Below are positions 1,572 to 34,537 of a stretch of 44,698 nt of DNA, piece by piece (position 1 is the stretch's first letter; each line of letters opens with the position of its first letter). The notes under the pieces were generated by a model, which worked only from the letters and a program-made list of their open reading frames with translations, was not told where the DNA came from and did not search any database. The stretch is from Shigella phage 1b. The stretch is taken from the sequence record OR420686, one strand, 5' to 3'. The translations under genes were made by a program, and so were the position numbers.

Positions 1572-3836
1572 ATGAGCTTAATTAAATTCGCTGTAACACG
1601 ACCCGCTAAAAAAGGCGAAAAAGCCAGGGCGGAAAACTTCCAGATGACCACCGAAGAGTTTTTCGAATTTATCAATGACGCGAAAGAAATCTCATCGGTG
1701 CACATCAACAAGACCGAGGATAAAGCCGAGTATGCGCGCCGCAAGCGTAAGGCCGATGGCATCGTAGCGTATACCAGTGACGGCTTACGCCGCAAGACCA
1801 GTGCGGTGGACCGCTCGATCCTGTTCTTCGATATTGACCGTACCGACACCCGCACCCTACGCCGCTGCCGTAAGGCTTTCATCGACGCGGGTCTGGAACA
1901 CGTATTTCACACCACAACCGGCGACCGCCACCCACTGAAAGGCGGCACGCGTTGCGCTCGCTTCCTGGTACTCACTGACAAGCCTGTACCGGCTGAAGAC
2001 CTGGGCCGTGTCCAGTATGCGCTATTACACCAACTTGGGCTGTCAGATGTGGACTTCGACGATTGCACGAAAGACACAAACCGCCTGATGTACCTGCCAC
2101 ACCAGCAGTCTGTAATAAAGTGTCACTACGGCAAACGTGCCCGCGTCCGTCGTCTGCTTCGCCTGGCGGATAAGTTGGGCGTGGAGAAAGAGGAAGTACG
2201 CCGCGAGCTTACCCAGGGCGACGACGCAGTGGCGGACGGGATTCTGGACTGGTGCTTCCAGGCAGGATTCGAGGAGTTATCTTCCGGTCGCGGTTATGAA
2301 GTGCCGTGCCCTAACGAACACCTGCACAGCGGCGAAGGGTCCACCGCCATAATGGTCAAGGATGGTGAGATCCGTTTCAAGTGTATGCACTCCGGCAACG
2401 AGTGTTGCTCGGAGCTGAACAGACACCAGCACCTGGCGCTGCGTCTTATCGGGATTCCGGACCACCTGAACGTCGAGCCACACAATATGTCCCGTAAGCA
2501 AATCGCCGCCATCCTTCCGGGACTGGACGACGAGGAAGTGGAGTCGTGCTATGAACATATTGTTGATGCGGTTGGCGACGGCGAAGAATACGGCGTGTGC
2601 ACCGATGCGGATCTGGATAACGAGCCGGTTGCGCTGTTCAGTAAGCACGACCCGATTATCGAGGGGTTGATTAACTTCAAATCGACCTGGTATATGGCGG
2701 GTGAGTCGAATATCGGTAAGTCTTTCTACGTGCTGGGTCAAATGGGCGCGGTCGCCGCGGGTATTCCGTTCGGCGGCGCGAAGGTCGTCCAGTCTCATTG
2801 CTTCTATTTCGACGCGGAAGGTGGTGAAGCCTCCAACCAGCGCAAAGAAGCATTGCAGATTAAATATGAGCACGACCTCGACAAGCTGCACATTATCGAT
2901 CTGCAATCTCGCGGCTGGGATATCACCAGCAAATCTGGCTTGCGCGAAGTTATCAGCTTTATCAACCGCACGGCTAACGGCGAGCCGGTTGGCCTGGTGG
3001 CGTTCGACTCACTCAACCAGACTGTCGCGCTGCGCTCCGCCGAGGCTAAACCGTTCGACGAGAACAACGCCAGCGATATGGGTGAAGTGGTCAAAGCGCT
3101 GAAGGCCATCGCGGAGAACACAGGCGGCAGTGCGGGCGTCATCCACCACCCGGCGAAAGGTGCAAACGGCAGCAGAACCCCACGCGGGTCCGGCGCGCTG
3201 CATGGTGCTGTCGATTCCGCTTTCTTCCTGGAACAGCCGGACGACAACCAGCCGGGTCAATTGAACCTGTATCACGAAAAGTCACGTAACGGCATCAAGC
3301 AAGCGCCGCGTGGCTTCGTCCTGCTCAAGTGCAAGGTTAAGGTGGATCTCCGCAAGTCAGAGGCGTTCGAGGCGCACCAGTCCACCAGCACCGGGCCAGA
3401 CTTCGGCGACGTGGTTGCCGGTTGGGACGTCAAGCCAATTGCCGCCACACCACGCGACGAGACTCTGTACCTCGTACCGGTCGCCCTGGCGCCGTTCGCC
3501 ATCGAACAGGCGAAGGCAGCAGGCAAGGCCGCGGTTAAGGAAGAGAACACCGCCGGACCGCGCAACGAAAAAGAGAAAGTGCTTTATGCGGCACTGGAAA
3601 AACTGATGGAAGATAACCCGGACCATACTGGATTCAGTAAATCGGCAATTGTCCGCCAGGCTGGGCTGGCAAAAGGTGGCACGTCGACGAAGGCAATCGA
3701 CGATATGGTCGAGCGCGGAGTGATAGGTTTTTACACCGATCCGCACACCGGGGCCATCTATGGGTCGTCTAATTTGGTCATCAAATCGGATATCCCCATC
3801 ACGCTTTCAGCGACCGATGACGATTTAAAAGATTAA
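1572..3836 (+). CDS. primase-polymerase (AEP-like) fused to a RecA-like helicase/ATPase (754 aa)
   Basis: N-terminal ILFFDIDRTD (hhhDhD-type) and FHTTTGDRH motifs; Cys/His zinc-binding cluster CPNEHLHSGEG...CMHSGNECC; Walker A GESNIGKS and Walker B-like LVAFDSLNQ. Confidence 0.75.
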   Translation: MSLIKFAVTRPAKKGEKARAENFQMTTEEFFEFINDAKEISSVHINKTEDKAEYARRKRKADGIVAYTSDGLRRKTSAVDRSILFFDIDRTDTRTLRRCRKAFIDAGLEHVFHTTTGDRHPLKGGTRCARFLVLTDKPVPAEDLGRVQYALLHQLGLSDVDFDDCTKDTNRLMYLPHQQSVIKCHYGKRARVRRLLRLADKLGVEKEEVRRELTQGDDAVADGILDWCFQAGFEELSSGRGYEVPCPNEHLHSGEGSTAIMVKDGEIRFKCMHSGNECCSELNRHQHLALRLIGIPDHLNVEPHNMSRKQIAAILPGLDDEEVESCYEHIVDAVGDGEEYGVCTDADLDNEPVALFSKHDPIIEGLINFKSTWYMAGESNIGKSFYVLGQMGAVAAGIPFGGAKVVQSHCFYFDAEGGEASNQRKEALQIKYEHDLDKLHIIDLQSRGWDITSKSGLREVISFINRTANGEPVGLVAFDSLNQTVALRSAEAKPFDENNASDMGEVVKALKAIAENTGGSAGVIHHPAKGANGSRTPRGSGALHGAVDSAFFLEQPDDNQPGQLNLYHEKSRNGIKQAPRGFVLLKCKVKVDLRKSEAFEAHQSTSTGPDFGDVVAGWDVKPIAATPRDETLYLVPVALAPFAIEQAKAAGKAAVKEENTAGPRNEKEKVLYAALEKLMEDNPDHTGFSKSAIVRQAGLAKGGTSTKAIDDMVERGVIGFYTDPHTGAIYGSSNLVIKSDIPITLSATDDDLKD

Positions 3837-3845
3837 ATTCTGCGC

Positions 3846-3946
3846 GCATTGGTTGCCATTATGGGAATCCCCATATCGGTAAATGATTAAATTTTGCGCG
3901 CATTGGTTGCCATTTTGCGGGCTTTTAGGTGGTCGCATTGGTTGCC
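3846..3946. repeat. three direct copies of GCATTGGTTGCC (3846, 3900, 3935), with an inverted copy at 4218-4229
   Basis: Read directly; the first two copies sit in a ~25 bp direct repeat aaatt(c/t)tgcgcgcattggttgccatt. Confidence 0.7.
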
Positions 3947-3996
3947 GTGTAGTGTAGATATAGTGAATAGTTATGCAATAAAACTGCATAAACTAA

Positions 3997-4098
3997 GCGG
4001 GACAAAAAGCGGGACAAACAAGGAGCGGGACAAAGCGGGACAGCACCCCTGTCCCGCCCCGGATGACGCGGCCTGGCGGGGAGCGGGACAGCGGGACA
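3997..4098. repeat. iteron-like array of GCGGGACA (six direct copies plus one inverted copy forming a palindrome)
   Basis: Copies at about 3997, 4009, 4025, 4035, 4083, 4091; inverted tgtcccgc at 4050. Confidence 0.75.
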
Positions 4099-4103
4099 GC
4101 ACC

Positions 4104-4160
4104 CCAGTCTTTCAGACTAGACGGGGGGTCTGGCACCCCCCTCGTCTGAGACTGCATAAA
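4104..4160. repeat. GC-rich stem-loop element ending in ctgcataa, copy A
   Basis: cagtctttcagactagacgggggg-tctggca-cccccctcgtctgagactgcataa; near-identical copy at 21390-21446. Confidence 0.7.
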
Positions 4161-4313
4161 ATCCAGTATTGCATAACGCACGGCAGCATGATGCGGATTG
4201 CGGTCGTCGATGAACTAGGCAACCAATGCGAGTTGCAGAATGGTGGGTGAGAAATGCAGTTTGCAGTCACAGCAGATAGCGATCAACTTTTTCATGCGCG
4301 TGATTAATATTGG

Positions 4314-4342
4314 TTGCGTTCGGCAAGGCGCCCTGCTATATT
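4314..4342 (+). promoter_or_regulatory. sigma70-like promoter (TTGCGT-N17-TATATT) followed by the conserved block TATATTGGTTGCACACCAAC
   Basis: Hexamers read directly; the same 20-bp block recurs in reverse at about 15527-15546 upstream of the minus-strand gene starting at 15505. Confidence 0.45.
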
Positions 4343-4370
4343 GGTTGCACACCAACATGAGGGCCGAACA

Positions 4371-4676
4371 ATGAAAGCGATTATCTGGAATTACACAATT
4401 GCGGTAGCAAAGCTGGACGAAGCGAAGGCACTAAACGGCAACGTAGACTCGGCGCTTCAGGTCGCGATACTGGCGCATCAATCACTTCGCAGCGCGCTTT
4501 ATGGTATGGGCGCCAGCATGGACGAACTGAGGCCGTTGCGTAAGGCCATCCATGCATACGCGCAGGCATTCTCCCGCGAGCGCCTGGCGTATCGCTTCGG
4601 GATCGGTGAGACGGCACTGACAAACGTCGCCCGGATTAAAGCCCAGCGCGAACTATTCGCCCAGCTTGCGAAATAA
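4371..4676 (+). CDS. hypothetical protein (101 aa)
   Basis: Track ORF trimmed to the ATG at 4371, which has a GAGGG RBS. Confidence 0.55.
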   Translation: MKAIIWNYTIAVAKLDEAKALNGNVDSALQVAILAHQSLRSALYGMGASMDELRPLRKAIHAYAQAFSRERLAYRFGIGETALTNVARIKAQRELFAQLAK

Positions 4677-4685
4677 GGGGCCAAA

Positions 4686-4955
4686 ATGAGCCGTAGGCGA
4701 GCTAAACAGCTTTCGTGGCATATTCCCCTGCATTGCATACGAATATGGGCTAAGAATGCGAATGAGGGCGATTCTGTGTTCTGGTGCTACCGCGATGAGG
4801 TGAAGCCATTAACGCAGACTCGCTACTTGCACCAGTTCGCCAGGGAGCATGGGTTAGCCATAAAAACGTCCTTGCAACCAATGGGGATCCGTATTACATT
4901 ACGCCGGAAGCCCGCCGTTGAGCGGGCGGGCAAACACTGGAGACTGAGCAAATGA
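4686..4955 (+). CDS. hypothetical protein (89 aa)
   Basis: ORF with AAGGGG RBS; tightly packed in the operon. Confidence 0.5.
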   Translation: MSRRRAKQLSWHIPLHCIRIWAKNANEGDSVFWCYRDEVKPLTQTRYLHQFAREHGLAIKTSLQPMGIRITLRRKPAVERAGKHWRLSK

Positions 4956-7509: not shown

Positions 7510-7534
7510 AGCCCGGAATTATCCGGGCTTTTTA
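7510..7534 (+). terminator. rho-independent terminator
   Basis: gcccggaattatccgggc hairpin followed by TTTTT. Confidence 0.6.
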
Positions 7535-7538
7535 TTGC

Positions 7539-7568
7539 TTGACTTGCAACCAACACAGGGGCCATACT
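7539..7568 (+). promoter_or_regulatory. sigma70-like promoter (TTGACT, 17-18 nt spacer, CATACT) flanked by two TGCAACCAA motifs
   Basis: Read directly; about 30 nt upstream of a GAGGAG RBS. Confidence 0.4.
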
Positions 7569-7597
7569 GCAACCAATCAACGAGAGGAGTAAACAAG

Positions 7598-9361: not shown

Positions 9362-9934
9362 ATGCACAAAAGGGCTTATATCATGGCAGAAATCAAAGTT
9401 AAGGGCCGACGCGCCAAACTGGACGGACGAGTAGCGGTGACTCCGCGCCGTAAACCAGGCGAGCAAACCGAACATACCAATCTCGGACCTGAGATCGAGT
9501 ACGGCAAGCGCCGTAAAGGCGGTAAATGTGGACGCCCGACCGACTACCGCACTGTGTATTGTGACCAGCTTCGTCGCTATTTCGCCGATGCCGTAGCCTG
9601 GCAGATCAACTACTCTGACAAGGGGGCCGCGCAGGTAATACCCCGCAACAAAATGCCAACCTTCGGTCGATTTGCCGCGGAAATCGGTGTGGGCGTAGCT
9701 TGCCTGTATCGCTGGGCGCGCGCACATGAGGAGTTCGCCGAGGCGATGGCGGACGCAATGGAGTTGCAGAAAACTTTCCTGATGGAAGCTGGCGGAGTGA
9801 CCATCGCTGCGGGCTTCGCGACCTTCCTGCTTAAAGCCAACCACGGCGTACGCGACGATACCCCACTGGATGACGACGAAGATGATAACGGCGACGTCGT
9901 TGTCGAACCTACCGGCAAAGGCCAGGGCGAATAA
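9362..9934 (+). CDS. terminase small subunit
   Basis: Immediately upstream of the large terminase; HTH-like PTFGRFAAEIGVGVACLYRWA; acidic C-terminus; start ambiguous between 9362 and the ATG at 9383. Confidence 0.6.
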   Translation: MHKRAYIMAEIKVKGRRAKLDGRVAVTPRRKPGEQTEHTNLGPEIEYGKRRKGGKCGRPTDYRTVYCDQLRRYFADAVAWQINYSDKGAAQVIPRNKMPTFGRFAAEIGVGVACLYRWARAHEEFAEAMADAMELQKTFLMEAGGVTIAAGFATFLLKANHGVRDDTPLDDDEDDNGDVVVEPTGKGQGE

Positions 9935-11319
9935 TGCGTAATTATGCGGCAGAACACCGCGCACTGGAGCGCACGATCGCAAAGCGCAACCGACCACCAC
10001 GCCCGACACGCGTTGCGCAGGCCGTCCGCCTGTACCAGCCTGATTGCCTTCCGCACCAGGTCGAACTACTGCGGGACACTAAGACTAAAATCCTCGGCCT
10101 GTGCTCCGGCTTCGGGGGAGGAAAGTCGTGGGTCGCTGCGCGTAAGGTAATCCAGCTTCTGACACTTAACCCCGGTCATGATGGCATCGTTACAGAACCG
10201 ACTATTCCTCTCCTGGTCAAGATCATGTACCCGGAATTGGAAAAGGCTTTCGACGAGGCTGGCTTCCGGTGGAAGTTCAATAAGCAGGACAAGATCTACA
10301 ACGTGCTGGTGAAAGGGAAATGGACCCGCGTTATCTGTGAATCAATGGAGAACTATACCCGCCTGATCGGGGTCAACGCCGCGTGGATTGTTGCCGATGA
10401 GTTCGACACCACGAAACAAGACGTCGCGCTGGCGGCATATCACAAATTGCTCGGTCGTCTGCGTGCGGGCTTCGTCCGCCAGTTCGTCATCGTGTCCACC
10501 CCGGAAGGCTACCGGGCGATGTACCAGATTTTCGAAGTGGAGAAGGATAGCCAGAAACGCTTGATCCGGGCGAAGACCACGGACAACCACCATTTACCGG
10601 CAGACTTTATTGACACGCTGCGCAGTCAGTACCCGGCTAACCTGATTGATGCGTACCTGAACGGCCTGTTTGTTAACCTTACGTCGGGCGCGGTGTACAA
10701 GATGTTTAACCGTGAGGAGAACGCCAGCACCGAAGAAGTGCAGCCGGAAGACACGCTGATTATCGGCATGGACTTTAACGTCACGAAGATGGCGGCGGTC
10801 GTGTACGTCAGACGGCAGCGCGTCACGGAGAACAAGGAGTTCCGCGACGAGATTCACGCCGTGGATGAATTTGTGGACCTGTTTGACACCCCAGCTATGA
10901 TTGAGGCGATCGAGGAGCGCTACCCCGATCATTGTGCTGCCGGTCGTGTTGTCGTTTACCCGGATAGCAGCGGCAAATCCCGCAAGACGGTCAACGCGTC
11001 GTCGTCCGATATCGCACAACTGGAAGATGCGGGCTTCGAGGTGGAGTATGACAGTGTTAACCCGCCTGTGAAAGACCGATTGATCGCGATGAATACGATG
11101 ATGTGTAACTCGAAGGGCGTGCGCCAGTATTTTGTCAACCTGGATAAATGCCCTACACTAGCGAAATGTCTGGAACAGCAGGTGTACGACCTGAAGAAAG
11201 GCGAACCGGATAAAACTGCCGGTGTGGACCACATGAACGATGCCGCGGGCTACCCAATTGCGCACCTGTTCCCTGTGATTCGTCCAATCGCCGTTGTTCC
11301 TACCGTAGATTTCTACTAA
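9934..11319 (+). CDS. terminase large subunit (ATPase plus nuclease)
   Basis: Walker A GLCSGFGGGKS, Walker B WIVADEFD, C-terminal nuclease-like region (IIGMDFN ... YPDSSG). Confidence 0.85.
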   Translation: MRNYAAEHRALERTIAKRNRPPRPTRVAQAVRLYQPDCLPHQVELLRDTKTKILGLCSGFGGGKSWVAARKVIQLLTLNPGHDGIVTEPTIPLLVKIMYPELEKAFDEAGFRWKFNKQDKIYNVLVKGKWTRVICESMENYTRLIGVNAAWIVADEFDTTKQDVALAAYHKLLGRLRAGFVRQFVIVSTPEGYRAMYQIFEVEKDSQKRLIRAKTTDNHHLPADFIDTLRSQYPANLIDAYLNGLFVNLTSGAVYKMFNREENASTEEVQPEDTLIIGMDFNVTKMAAVVYVRRQRVTENKEFRDEIHAVDEFVDLFDTPAMIEAIEERYPDHCAAGRVVVYPDSSGKSRKTVNASSSDIAQLEDAGFEVEYDSVNPPVKDRLIAMNTMMCNSKGVRQYFVNLDKCPTLAKCLEQQVYDLKKGEPDKTAGVDHMNDAAGYPIAHLFPVIRPIAVVPTVDFY

Positions 11320-15505: not shown

Positions 15506-15540
15506 CTTGTTTTCCTTCATATCTCTGTTGGTGTGCAACC

Positions 15541-15570
15541 AATATAGCGCAACCAACTCCCGCAGTGCAA
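15541..15570 (-). promoter_or_regulatory. sigma70-like promoter (TTGCAC-N18-TATATT) for the minus-strand two-gene unit
   Basis: Read on the reverse complement; shares the block TATATTGGTTGCACACCAAC with the promoter at 4314-4342. Confidence 0.45.
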
Positions 15571-21126: not shown

Positions 21127-21127
21127 A

Positions 21128-21386
21128 GCGGGACAAAACGGGACGTCCCGCTTTGTCCCGCCTCTGTAAAACTGCATATCTAATCACTTCCATTGCATAA
21201 ACCAAAAGCGGGACAGGCGGGACGTCCCGTTTTGTCCCACCCCATAAATGTGCATATCTATTCGCATTTCGTGCATAAAACAAACGGGACAAAAAGCGGG
21301 ACAGACCGGGGGCGGGACAAAGCGGGACAGCACCCCGTCCCCGCCAGTGCTGCCGCTGGTTTCAGCCGATCGGGACAGGCGGGACA
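21128..21386. repeat. iteron-like array of GCGGGACA/CGGGACA repeats (about 10 copies, including two ~34-bp palindromic units centred on GGGACGTCCC)
   Basis: Palindromes at about 21128-21162 and 21208-21240; direct copies at about 21284, 21294, 21312, 21322, 21371, 21379. Confidence 0.75.
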
Positions 21387-21389
21387 AAG

Positions 21390-21446
21390 CCCAGTCTTTC
21401 AGACTAGACGGGGGTCAATGGCCCCCCTCGTCTGAGACTGCATAAT
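21390..21446. repeat. GC-rich stem-loop element ending in ctgcataa, copy B
   Basis: cagtctttcagactagacggggg-tcaatgg-cccccctcgtctgagactgcataa; near-identical to 4104-4160. Confidence 0.7.
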
Positions 21447-21508
21447 GTTTGTTTTAAATTCGCTGATACAATGAACGACGGCAACTGCATAAAAAGGGGG
21501 ACTGCATA

Positions 21509-34507: not shown

Positions 34508-34537
34508 ACTATAGTGCAACCAACCTATTGGTTGCAA
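34508..34537 (-). promoter_or_regulatory. sigma70-like promoter (TTGCAA-N18-TATAGT) containing the palindrome TGCAACCAA-ccta-TTGGTTGCA
   Basis: Read on the reverse complement; perfect 9-bp inverted repeat with 4-bp spacer at about 34515-34536 sits in the spacer. Confidence 0.5.

Follow-up and report, generated by a model that had tools for sequence, protein, structure and literature searches.

A candidate iteron-type replication origin behind the helicase-primase gene of a Dhillonvirus and its paralogous module in the tail genes

Composition of the gap behind the helicase-primase gene

The 44,698-base stretch of DNA analysed here (the window; Shigella phage 1b, sequence record OR420686) was recognized by DNA similarity searches as a complete genome of a Dhillonvirus, i.e. 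of the HK578/SO-1-like Escherichia coli siphophages. Its gene for a helicase-primase of 754 amino acids ends with the TAA stop codon at 3834-3836; the gap under study begins one base past this stop and reaches to the ATG of the next gene at 4371, so that positions 3837-4370 represent the entire intergenic region (locus A; closest DNA matches over the region 88-91% identical). This gap is probably an iteron-type replication origin that would be bound by the helicase-primase and would thus adjoin the gene for its own initiator; the main evidence for this reading is comparative. Two six-frame open reading frames (ORFs) of the gap had been regarded as translations of the repeats in a preliminary description of the sequence. 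Indeed, interruptions or frameshifts affect ORF 3894-4250 (+) in 15 of 16 relatives and ORF 3993-4181 (−) in 12 of 16; with stops or frameshifts in both ORFs in most relatives, the gap is non-coding.

The core of locus A is a module of approximately 170 nt that consists of an AT-rich stretch, an array of CGGGACA repeats and a hairpin ending in CTGCATAA (coordinates in Table 1). As listed in the preliminary description, GCGGGACA is present in six direct copies (3997, 4009, 4025, 4035, 4083, 4091) and one inverted copy (4050), far above chance: The genome holds 17 copies versus 2.2 expected, 14 of which fall within two loci, namely locus A and a second locus in the tail genes (locus B, see below) that accounts for half of the total. 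CGGGACA is essentially restricted to the two modules in this genome; seven copies are found within 102 bp at locus A, with the first four direct copies spaced 12/16/10. The AT-rich stretches noted before are borne out by the segment 3958-3997, which abuts the first iteron; only one duplex 40-mer in the 44.7-kb genome is less stable. It contains the block GTGAATAGTTATGCA-N7-TGCATAAA, an inverted repeat (TTATGCA/TGCATAA) that is invariant in 17 relatives, with only the spacer varying. The GC-rich stem-loop was likewise confirmed: It is foldable on either strand with a DNA folding energy of −15.1 kcal/mol (z = −4.4 versus shuffles), and its exact 22-mer is confined to Dhillonvirus contigs; the terminal CTGCATAA occurs six times in the genome (1.15 expected), five of them in the two loci. 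Features by which replication origins are recognized are found side by side: clustered, over-represented repeats of conserved number and spacing, an adjoining AT-rich stretch and the neighboring gene of a proposed initiator with a predicted winged helix.

Two further interpretations of the core were considered and dismissed. G-quadruplex or R-loop formation as a general explanation for the G-rich strand was dropped because the G-richness is missing from the equivalent iterons (TTGCGAGT) of Klebsiella phage 37P2 and contig L132; a sigma-54 promoter (TGGCAC) in the hairpin loop was rejected because the loop varies among relatives.

Table 1. Positions of the helicase-primase gene and of the sequence features at the two loci (numbering of the 44,698-base window).
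Feature	Position	Strand	Remarks
Helicase-primase gene (proposed initiator)	1572-3836	+	AAA_25 core aa 357-531; Pfam E = 2.5e-19; PHROG 3228 'replicative helicase-primase'
54-bp tandem duplication	3826-3863 and 3880-3917 (span 3826-3917)	+	repeat finding, 92% identity
CGCATTGGTTGCC, three direct copies	3845-3857, 3899-3911, 3934-3946	+	left flank of the core
AT-rich stretch (candidate DNA-unwinding element)	3958-3997		75% AT; nearest-neighbor energy −43.5 kcal/mol
CGGGACA iteron array	3997-4098	+	direct 3998, 4010, 4026, 4036; inverted 4050-4057; direct 4084, 4092
Imperfect 50-nt hairpin/cruciform	4105-4154		CAGTCTTTCAGACTAGACGGGGGG, loop, CCCCCCTCGTCTGAGACTG; stem invariant, loop variable
Short conserved motifs CTGCATAA and TGCATAA	4152-4159 and 4170-4176	+	also bracket the second-locus modules
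CGCATTGGTTGCC, inverted copy	4218-4230	−	right flank of the core; conserved in close relatives
Sigma-70-like promoter of the downstream genes	4310-4357	+	TTGCGT 4314-4319, 17-nt spacer, TATATT 4337-4342; read from sequence
Two palindromic CGGGAC clusters (CGGGACGTCCCG)	21127-21163, 21207-21243	+	locus B, upstream of its module
Full paralogous module, 171 nt	21273-21443	+	hairpin at 21392-21440
Extended −10-like TGATACAAT	21464-21472	+	just ahead of the tape-measure start codon

Two conserved modules and a promoter-linked repeat class

Alignments were made of locus A (17 Dhillonvirus contigs) and of locus B (15 contigs), followed by a joint alignment of 33 distinct module copies. In all 33 copies the module is 169-172 nt long and the number and spacing of the iterons are identical; this includes a lineage (L019, L130) whose helicase-primase is only 66-68% identical. 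Variation is concentrated in the hairpin loop and in a central segment of about 45 nt. Conservation in relatives applies to CGGGACA in number and spacing, but not to the copy number of GCATTGGTTGCC, the second repeat of the gap: Its first copy lies inside a 54-bp duplication, which is missing from about half of the relatives, so that its copy number varies from 1 to 3. Besides one CGCATTGGTTGCC per copy, this duplication, an indel among the 17 relatives, includes the end of the helicase-primase gene with its final four codons and the stop.

The hairpin stem is essentially invariant in the 33 sequences, with single pairs broken in two to three of them, and RNAalifold detected no compensatory changes among 30 predicted pairs. 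Selection appears to act on the hairpin sequence as such and not on its pairing alone. These data also bear on the proposal that the module is a two-copy structured non-coding RNA with an antitermination or other regulatory function, transcribed from the AT-rich region through the repeats and the hairpin. The fixed length of 169-172 nt, the stable hairpin (z about −4) and the same orientation of both copies would be in line with such an RNA; however, the lack of compensatory pairs (0/30) is accompanied by a broken stem pair in the divergent lineage, the fold of the full-length module is only marginally beyond shuffles (z = −1.95 and −2.66), an upstream promoter was not called, and in other phages the repeats also lie within initiator coding sequences (see below). 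Moreover, the whole window gave no match at the Rfam gathering score, and the E-value mode applied to both loci returned sub-threshold, miRNA-like noise. A structured RNA is accordingly rated as very improbable.

Locus B (21127-21508, + strand) is a non-coding gap of 380 bp between the tail-assembly-chaperone genes and the tape-measure gene, at a distance of 17 kb from locus A, and carries 13 CGGGAC motifs and three CTGCATAA motifs. Its module aligns base for base with 3986-4157: The four direct CGGGACA at 12/16/10, the downstream repeat pair, the hairpin stem and CTGCATAA are all arranged as in locus A. The preliminary description had thus characterized locus A correctly but missed this paralog, and the element is not unique. 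In 158 phage records, 352 matching places were found, i.e. about two per genome. Within a genome, modules A and B resemble each other slightly more than modules taken from different genomes do (0.827 versus 0.810; permutation p = 0.008), which hints at occasional sequence exchange between the two copies. The orthologous loci of Sodalis phage SO-1 (GenBank record GQ502199 / NC_013600; core 95% identical) are annotated as repeat_region 'region A' and 'region B', with locus B corresponding to 'region A' of that record; in what is only an annotation note, the depositors described direct, inverted and palindromic repeats and pointed out that the two regions are similar. According to the proposed reading, locus B would be an auxiliary element (cis-acting helper) or a second origin.

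The existence of two copies is also relevant to a possible function as DNA packaging (pac) site or as recombination site, recognized by a terminase or recombinase. An array with flanking inverted sites generally resembles the multi-site pac regions of some headful phages such as SPP1, and locus A is situated upstream of the late genes; on the other hand, the terminase genes begin only at 9362, about 5 kb downstream of locus A, two copies 17 kb apart would mean two packaging series, and the repeats of other lineages are linked to helicase or initiator genes, not to terminases. This explanation is likewise rated as very improbable.

The second repeat class flanks the core. Three direct and one inverted copies of GCATTGGTTGCC had been reported and are indeed present; in the extended form of the 13-mer CGCATTGGTTGCC they represent four sites versus 0.16 expected, with none elsewhere in the genome. 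Their core TTGGTTGC was detected at 22 genome sites versus 2 expected (ten-fold excess), which are mostly intergenic, often paired at variable spacing (e.g. 1036, 7546/7569, 15535/15549, 34516/34528, 36189/36206, 38638, 42926/42942) and in several places overlap sigma-70-like promoter hexamers; in addition to those within CGCATTGGTTGCC, the gap itself holds copies at 4310 and 4341. The GCATTGGTTGCC repeats can therefore not be maintained as simple origin-specific iterons: As part of a genome-wide, promoter-linked motif they constitute a separate control layer, and TTGGTTGC/CGCATTGGTTGCC is read as a distinct protein-binding motif whose sites probably control transcription around the origin. 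The motif recurs in related phages, as TTGGTTGC in 37P2 and Edwardsiella phage eiAU-183 and as one-to-two-base variants in Salmonella phage St162 (TTGGCTGC) and contigs L132 (TTGGCCGC) and L133 (TTGGCAGC), and in each of them clusters to either side of the equivalent region.

With regard to orientation, the TTGGTTGC sites are on the plus strand from 42.9 kb round to 4.3 kb and on the minus strand from 4.2 to 38.6 kb, the exception being the plus-strand site at 34528, which makes up a palindrome with the minus-strand site at 34516; the orientation is not tied to the direction of the genes and changes at locus A. In the promoter of the downstream genes, one TTGGTTGC overlaps each hexamer (4314-4342), followed by the leader TTGGTTGCACACCAA in which a small TTGGT/ACCAA hairpin is possible; the hexamers are conserved in relatives and the spacer is variable. 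A near-identical promoter and leader (TATATTGGTTGCACACCAACA) is present at 4337-4357 (+) and 15535-15556 (−) before two different genes, and at 7530-7576 a terminator-like hairpin (GCCCGGATAATTCCGGGC and a T-rich tail) comes after two TTGGTTGC sites on the minus strand.

In view of these sites, the modules might alternatively serve transcription control: CGGGACA would be bound by a phage transcription factor, the hairpin would act as a barrier or processing signal at the boundaries of early and late units, and a promoter located immediately behind each module would restart transcription. In favor of this role, the two modules run in the same direction as the genes, promoter-like sites are located downstream (TTGCGT-N17-TATATT at 4314-4342 and TGATACAAT at 21464-21472), and the promoter-associated TTGGTTGC sites cluster in the region. 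Consensus scans called no promoter in locus A or B, a strict scan passing over TTGCGT-N17-TATATT as well, and no terminator in locus A; in locus B, one terminator-like site was called on the minus strand (21229-21209), no more than expected by chance. No terminator-like site is present in 3700-4500, where the hairpin is followed by GCATAAAATCC and no T run, and thus lacks the U-tract of an intrinsic terminator. In addition, the second module precedes the tape-measure gene in Dhillonvirus but follows a head-morphogenesis gene in 37P2, and unrelated phages tie the repeats to helicase or O-like initiator genes, not to regulators. A purely transcriptional role is hence considered unlikely.

The predicted C-terminal winged helix and the repeat type in related and unrelated viruses

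The origin reading gains its further support from the comparison of the repeats with the protein encoded next to them. In the helicase-primase, a C-terminal winged-helix domain is predicted at about aa 665-735 (nt ~3564-3776). The AlphaFold2 model of aa 607-754 displays the helix-helix-helix-strand-strand order of a winged helix at a predicted local distance difference test score (pLDDT) of 80-89, and its top Foldseek matches in the PDB are all winged-helix DNA binders (including MarR, ArsR-like, IclR, the Rio2 N-domain, histone H1 and ORC), generic matches with probabilities up to 0.99. The PDB sequence search yielded a marginal match to RepA only (1g8y, E = 0.47). As a protein query, the C-terminal domain alone retrieved only two matches and the full-length query was required.

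In related genera, the gap after the orthologous gene contains comparable elements with different repeats: GGGGAGA repeats, a AATAGTTATG block at the equivalent place and a hairpin in St162; TTGCGAGT/ACTCGCAA repeats and a long hairpin in 37P2 and L132; GGGGATC repeats in the equivalent region of L133. So the architecture is conserved and the repeat sequence is lineage-specific. Phage 37P2 (L083) likewise carries a pair of paralogous iteron and hairpin modules, one behind its helicase-primase gene, the other in the late part of the genome. Each of them (10881-11215 and 1561-1900) contains TTGCGAGT/ACTCGCAA repeats and a long hairpin with CGATCAC...GATCGTATCAT on its flanks; the arms of the two hairpins are not the same, and each hairpin folds (z = −4.9 and −3.2).

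The C-terminal 100 amino acids of the helicase-primases cluster in accordance with the iteron type, namely the CGGGACA phages, 37P2 with L132 (TTGCGAGT), and St162 with L133 (GGGGAGA/GGGGATC); the identity is 57% between 37P2 and L132 versus 34-38% to the others, and 49% between St162 and L133. In eiAU-183 (L189), the related helicase-primase has a replaced C-terminal domain, and the 900-bp gap after its gene (3960-4856) contains no CGGGACA array. This gap harbors ten TTGGTTGC sites and a long-range inverted repeat (GCCCCGGGGGCACTTATTGATTTATAAGG and its complement, approximately 270 bp apart). Recognition of the repeats by the C-terminal domain is suggested by this pattern, which is scored as suggestive only since it is confounded with phylogeny.

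The proposal that both helix-turn-helix (HTH) proteins are candidate binders of GCGGGACA did not stand up to the same comparison: The small upstream HTH gene does not track the iteron type, and its products are about equally similar throughout (48-53%). In the window, this gene (1232-1561) lies just upstream of the helicase-primase gene and encodes a protein of 109 aa, named 'transposase' in GenBank records, with a C-terminal HTH that matches HTH_23 and sigma-70 region 4; relatives of the Guernseyvirinae possess an unrelated Cro/CI-type HTH protein in its place.

Beyond these relatives, an exact-pattern scan for CGGGACANAAANCGGGACA in 2.9 million viral contigs matched 53 non-Dhillonvirus loci, many of which exhibit dense (C)GGGACA direct arrays followed by inverted copies that form a GC hairpin. 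A gene for a RepA-like (AAA_25) helicase, 24-27% identical to the Dhillonvirus helicase, was located upstream in 21 of the 53 loci, representing about ten lineages. In most of these 21 loci, 300-575 nt separate the end of the helicase-core match from the pattern downstream of it on the same strand, a distance equal to one C-terminal domain; according to ORF calls, the array begins at or just past the stop codon in eight loci (six lineages), and in L156 it is situated about 2 kb downstream of the helicase gene. AAA_25 was confirmed by Pfam in the five proteins tested (E = 1e-33 to 1e-37), the N-termini of which differ (primase-like, DnaB-N or none). In four other loci (L141, L146, L142, L184) the arrays lie inside genes classed in PHROGs as 'replication initiation O-like' or 'DnaD-like helicase loader'; there, the GGGACA repeats are translated as Gly-Thr-rich linkers (e.g. 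IGTESGTG...) directly after a winged-helix-like segment. When bacterial genomes were scanned with the same pattern as a control, an initiator-like match was obtained at only 3 of 120 loci, which were mostly isolated pattern matches; the densest bacterial array (16 GGGAC motifs) follows an AAA_25 helicase gene, and the second densest (12 motifs) had no initiator-like match. The plasmid collection contained no module match. The recurrence of the repeat at the 3' end of or inside initiator genes of different architectures is best explained if it is an origin iteron.

The proposed mode of initiation and its counterparts

Based on these comparisons, the following course of initiation can be envisaged. 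The helicase-primase, with a primase-like N-terminus, a RepA-like hexameric helicase core and the C-terminal winged helix, would bind CGGGACA via the latter; several bound subunits would oligomerize on the array, upon which the AT-rich stretch 3958-3997 and/or the invariant hairpin would open. The helicase would then load itself, and the primase domain would start DNA synthesis. The module of locus B, with the same iterons and hairpin, might function as a second origin or as a cis-acting helper in the manner of P4 crr or SPP1 oriR. The analysis itself shows the anatomy of the region, its conservation, the repeated association of the repeats with genes of replication initiators and the predicted winged-helix fold; that the protein binds, unwinds and primes there, and what the second locus does, is inferred.

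Individual elements of this scheme have counterparts in known replicons. The alpha protein of phage P4 combines primase, helicase and a C-terminal winged-helix binder and recognizes 8-bp repeats in ori and in the cis-acting crr. The likeness consists in a single multidomain protein and short repeats in two separate loci and is one of logic only: The AAA_25 core of the Dhillonvirus protein belongs to another helicase superfamily, CGGGACA differs from the type I iterons of P4 (TGTTCACC), and the Dhillonvirus loci are 17 kb apart, each with an invariant hairpin. P4 alpha was not matched in the PDB sequence search or by Foldseek. The oriV of plasmid RSF1010/R1162 comprises iterons, an AT-rich stretch and the conserved hairpins ssiA and ssiB, which are primase start sites; its RepA is the archetype of the helicase family, and the Dhillonvirus helicase core is assigned to the same Pfam family (AAA_25; marginal PDB match 1g8y). 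A start site for the primase is thus a plausible role for the invariant Dhillonvirus hairpin. RSF1010 differs by its three proteins (RepA, RepB', RepC), 20-bp iterons and two oppositely oriented hairpins, in contrast to the one fused protein proposed here, repeats of 7-8 bp and one hairpin per module.

The placement of the origin resembles that in the pri-rep-ori region of staphylococcal pathogenicity islands (SaPI) and in gene O of phage lambda, where an initiator-specific origin of short repeats and an AT-rich stretch is located 3' of or inside the initiator gene; the GGGACA arrays inside O-like genes of other viral contigs correspond to the lambda arrangement. Protein families and repeats differ from these systems, and Dhillonvirus has the invariant hairpin and the duplicate copy in addition. 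Bacillus phage SPP1 has two initiator-binding repeat loci, oriL and oriR, of which one lies at the replication genes and the other in the late region, and shares with Dhillonvirus this wide separation of the two loci; in SPP1, however, G38P is a separate origin binder that recruits the helicase via a loader, and the repeats are unrelated.

The candidate origin of the preliminary description is supported by the conservation of the module, by its linkage to initiator genes across lineages and by the match of iteron type and C-terminal domain, but it is not proven, and several observations weigh against it. The invariance of the stem leaves no compensatory changes by which pairing, be it of RNA or DNA, could be confirmed through covariation. 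The Foldseek E-values of the winged helix are weak (0.03-0.4), and the match of iteron type and C-terminal domain also follows the overall phylogeny. In the profile-profile comparison (hhalign), the C-termini of the unrelated helicases were not significantly similar to the Dhillonvirus domain (probability 2.6%); as homology of these domains is not detectable, the shared repeat could be convergent. The GC skew tracks gene orientation and transcription, with switches near 1.1 kb and 33 kb, does not mark the site and is therefore uninformative on the origin. The orientation of both modules with transcription, each followed by a promoter-like site, would also fit a transcriptional role, and an origin inside a tail operon is unusual. 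Finally, in the literature on origins, repeats and transcriptomes of Dhillonvirus, HK578, SO-1 and Guernseyvirinae, no paper analysing either locus was found.

A more far-reaching interpretation, to be regarded as a tentative and rather doubtful extension, is that the CGGGACA array and the hairpin form a portable origin cassette of which Dhillonviruses run two functional, sequence-exchanging copies, with TTGGTTGC as a promoter/operator code. Such a cassette may travel with RepA-like helicases and O-like initiators or may be convergently adopted by them; the second copy could be a P4-crr-like enhancer or a separate late-phase origin, and the TTGGTTGC sites could represent a phage-specific code that couples transcription to origin firing.

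Iteron-type origins as such are familiar elements, and in Dhillonvirus none has been mapped before; of moderate interest are the duplicate copy inside the tail operon and the repeat type common to many unrelated phage replicons. Dhillonviruses belong to the phages that are isolated most frequently with E. coli as host and are used in phage-therapy work and in defence-system screens. If the origin reading is true, the binding site, the binding domain and the second locus are named, and minimal replicons and engineered phages would become buildable. It would also aid the interpretation of defence systems that sense replication initiation: In HK578, the changes in mutants that escape the OLD system are located in the helicase-primase gene and in the promoter of the gene immediately preceding it (bioRxiv 10.64898/2026.07.10.737580). 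For uncultured phage genomes, one short repeat beside diverse helicase genes would provide a simple rule for finding origins.

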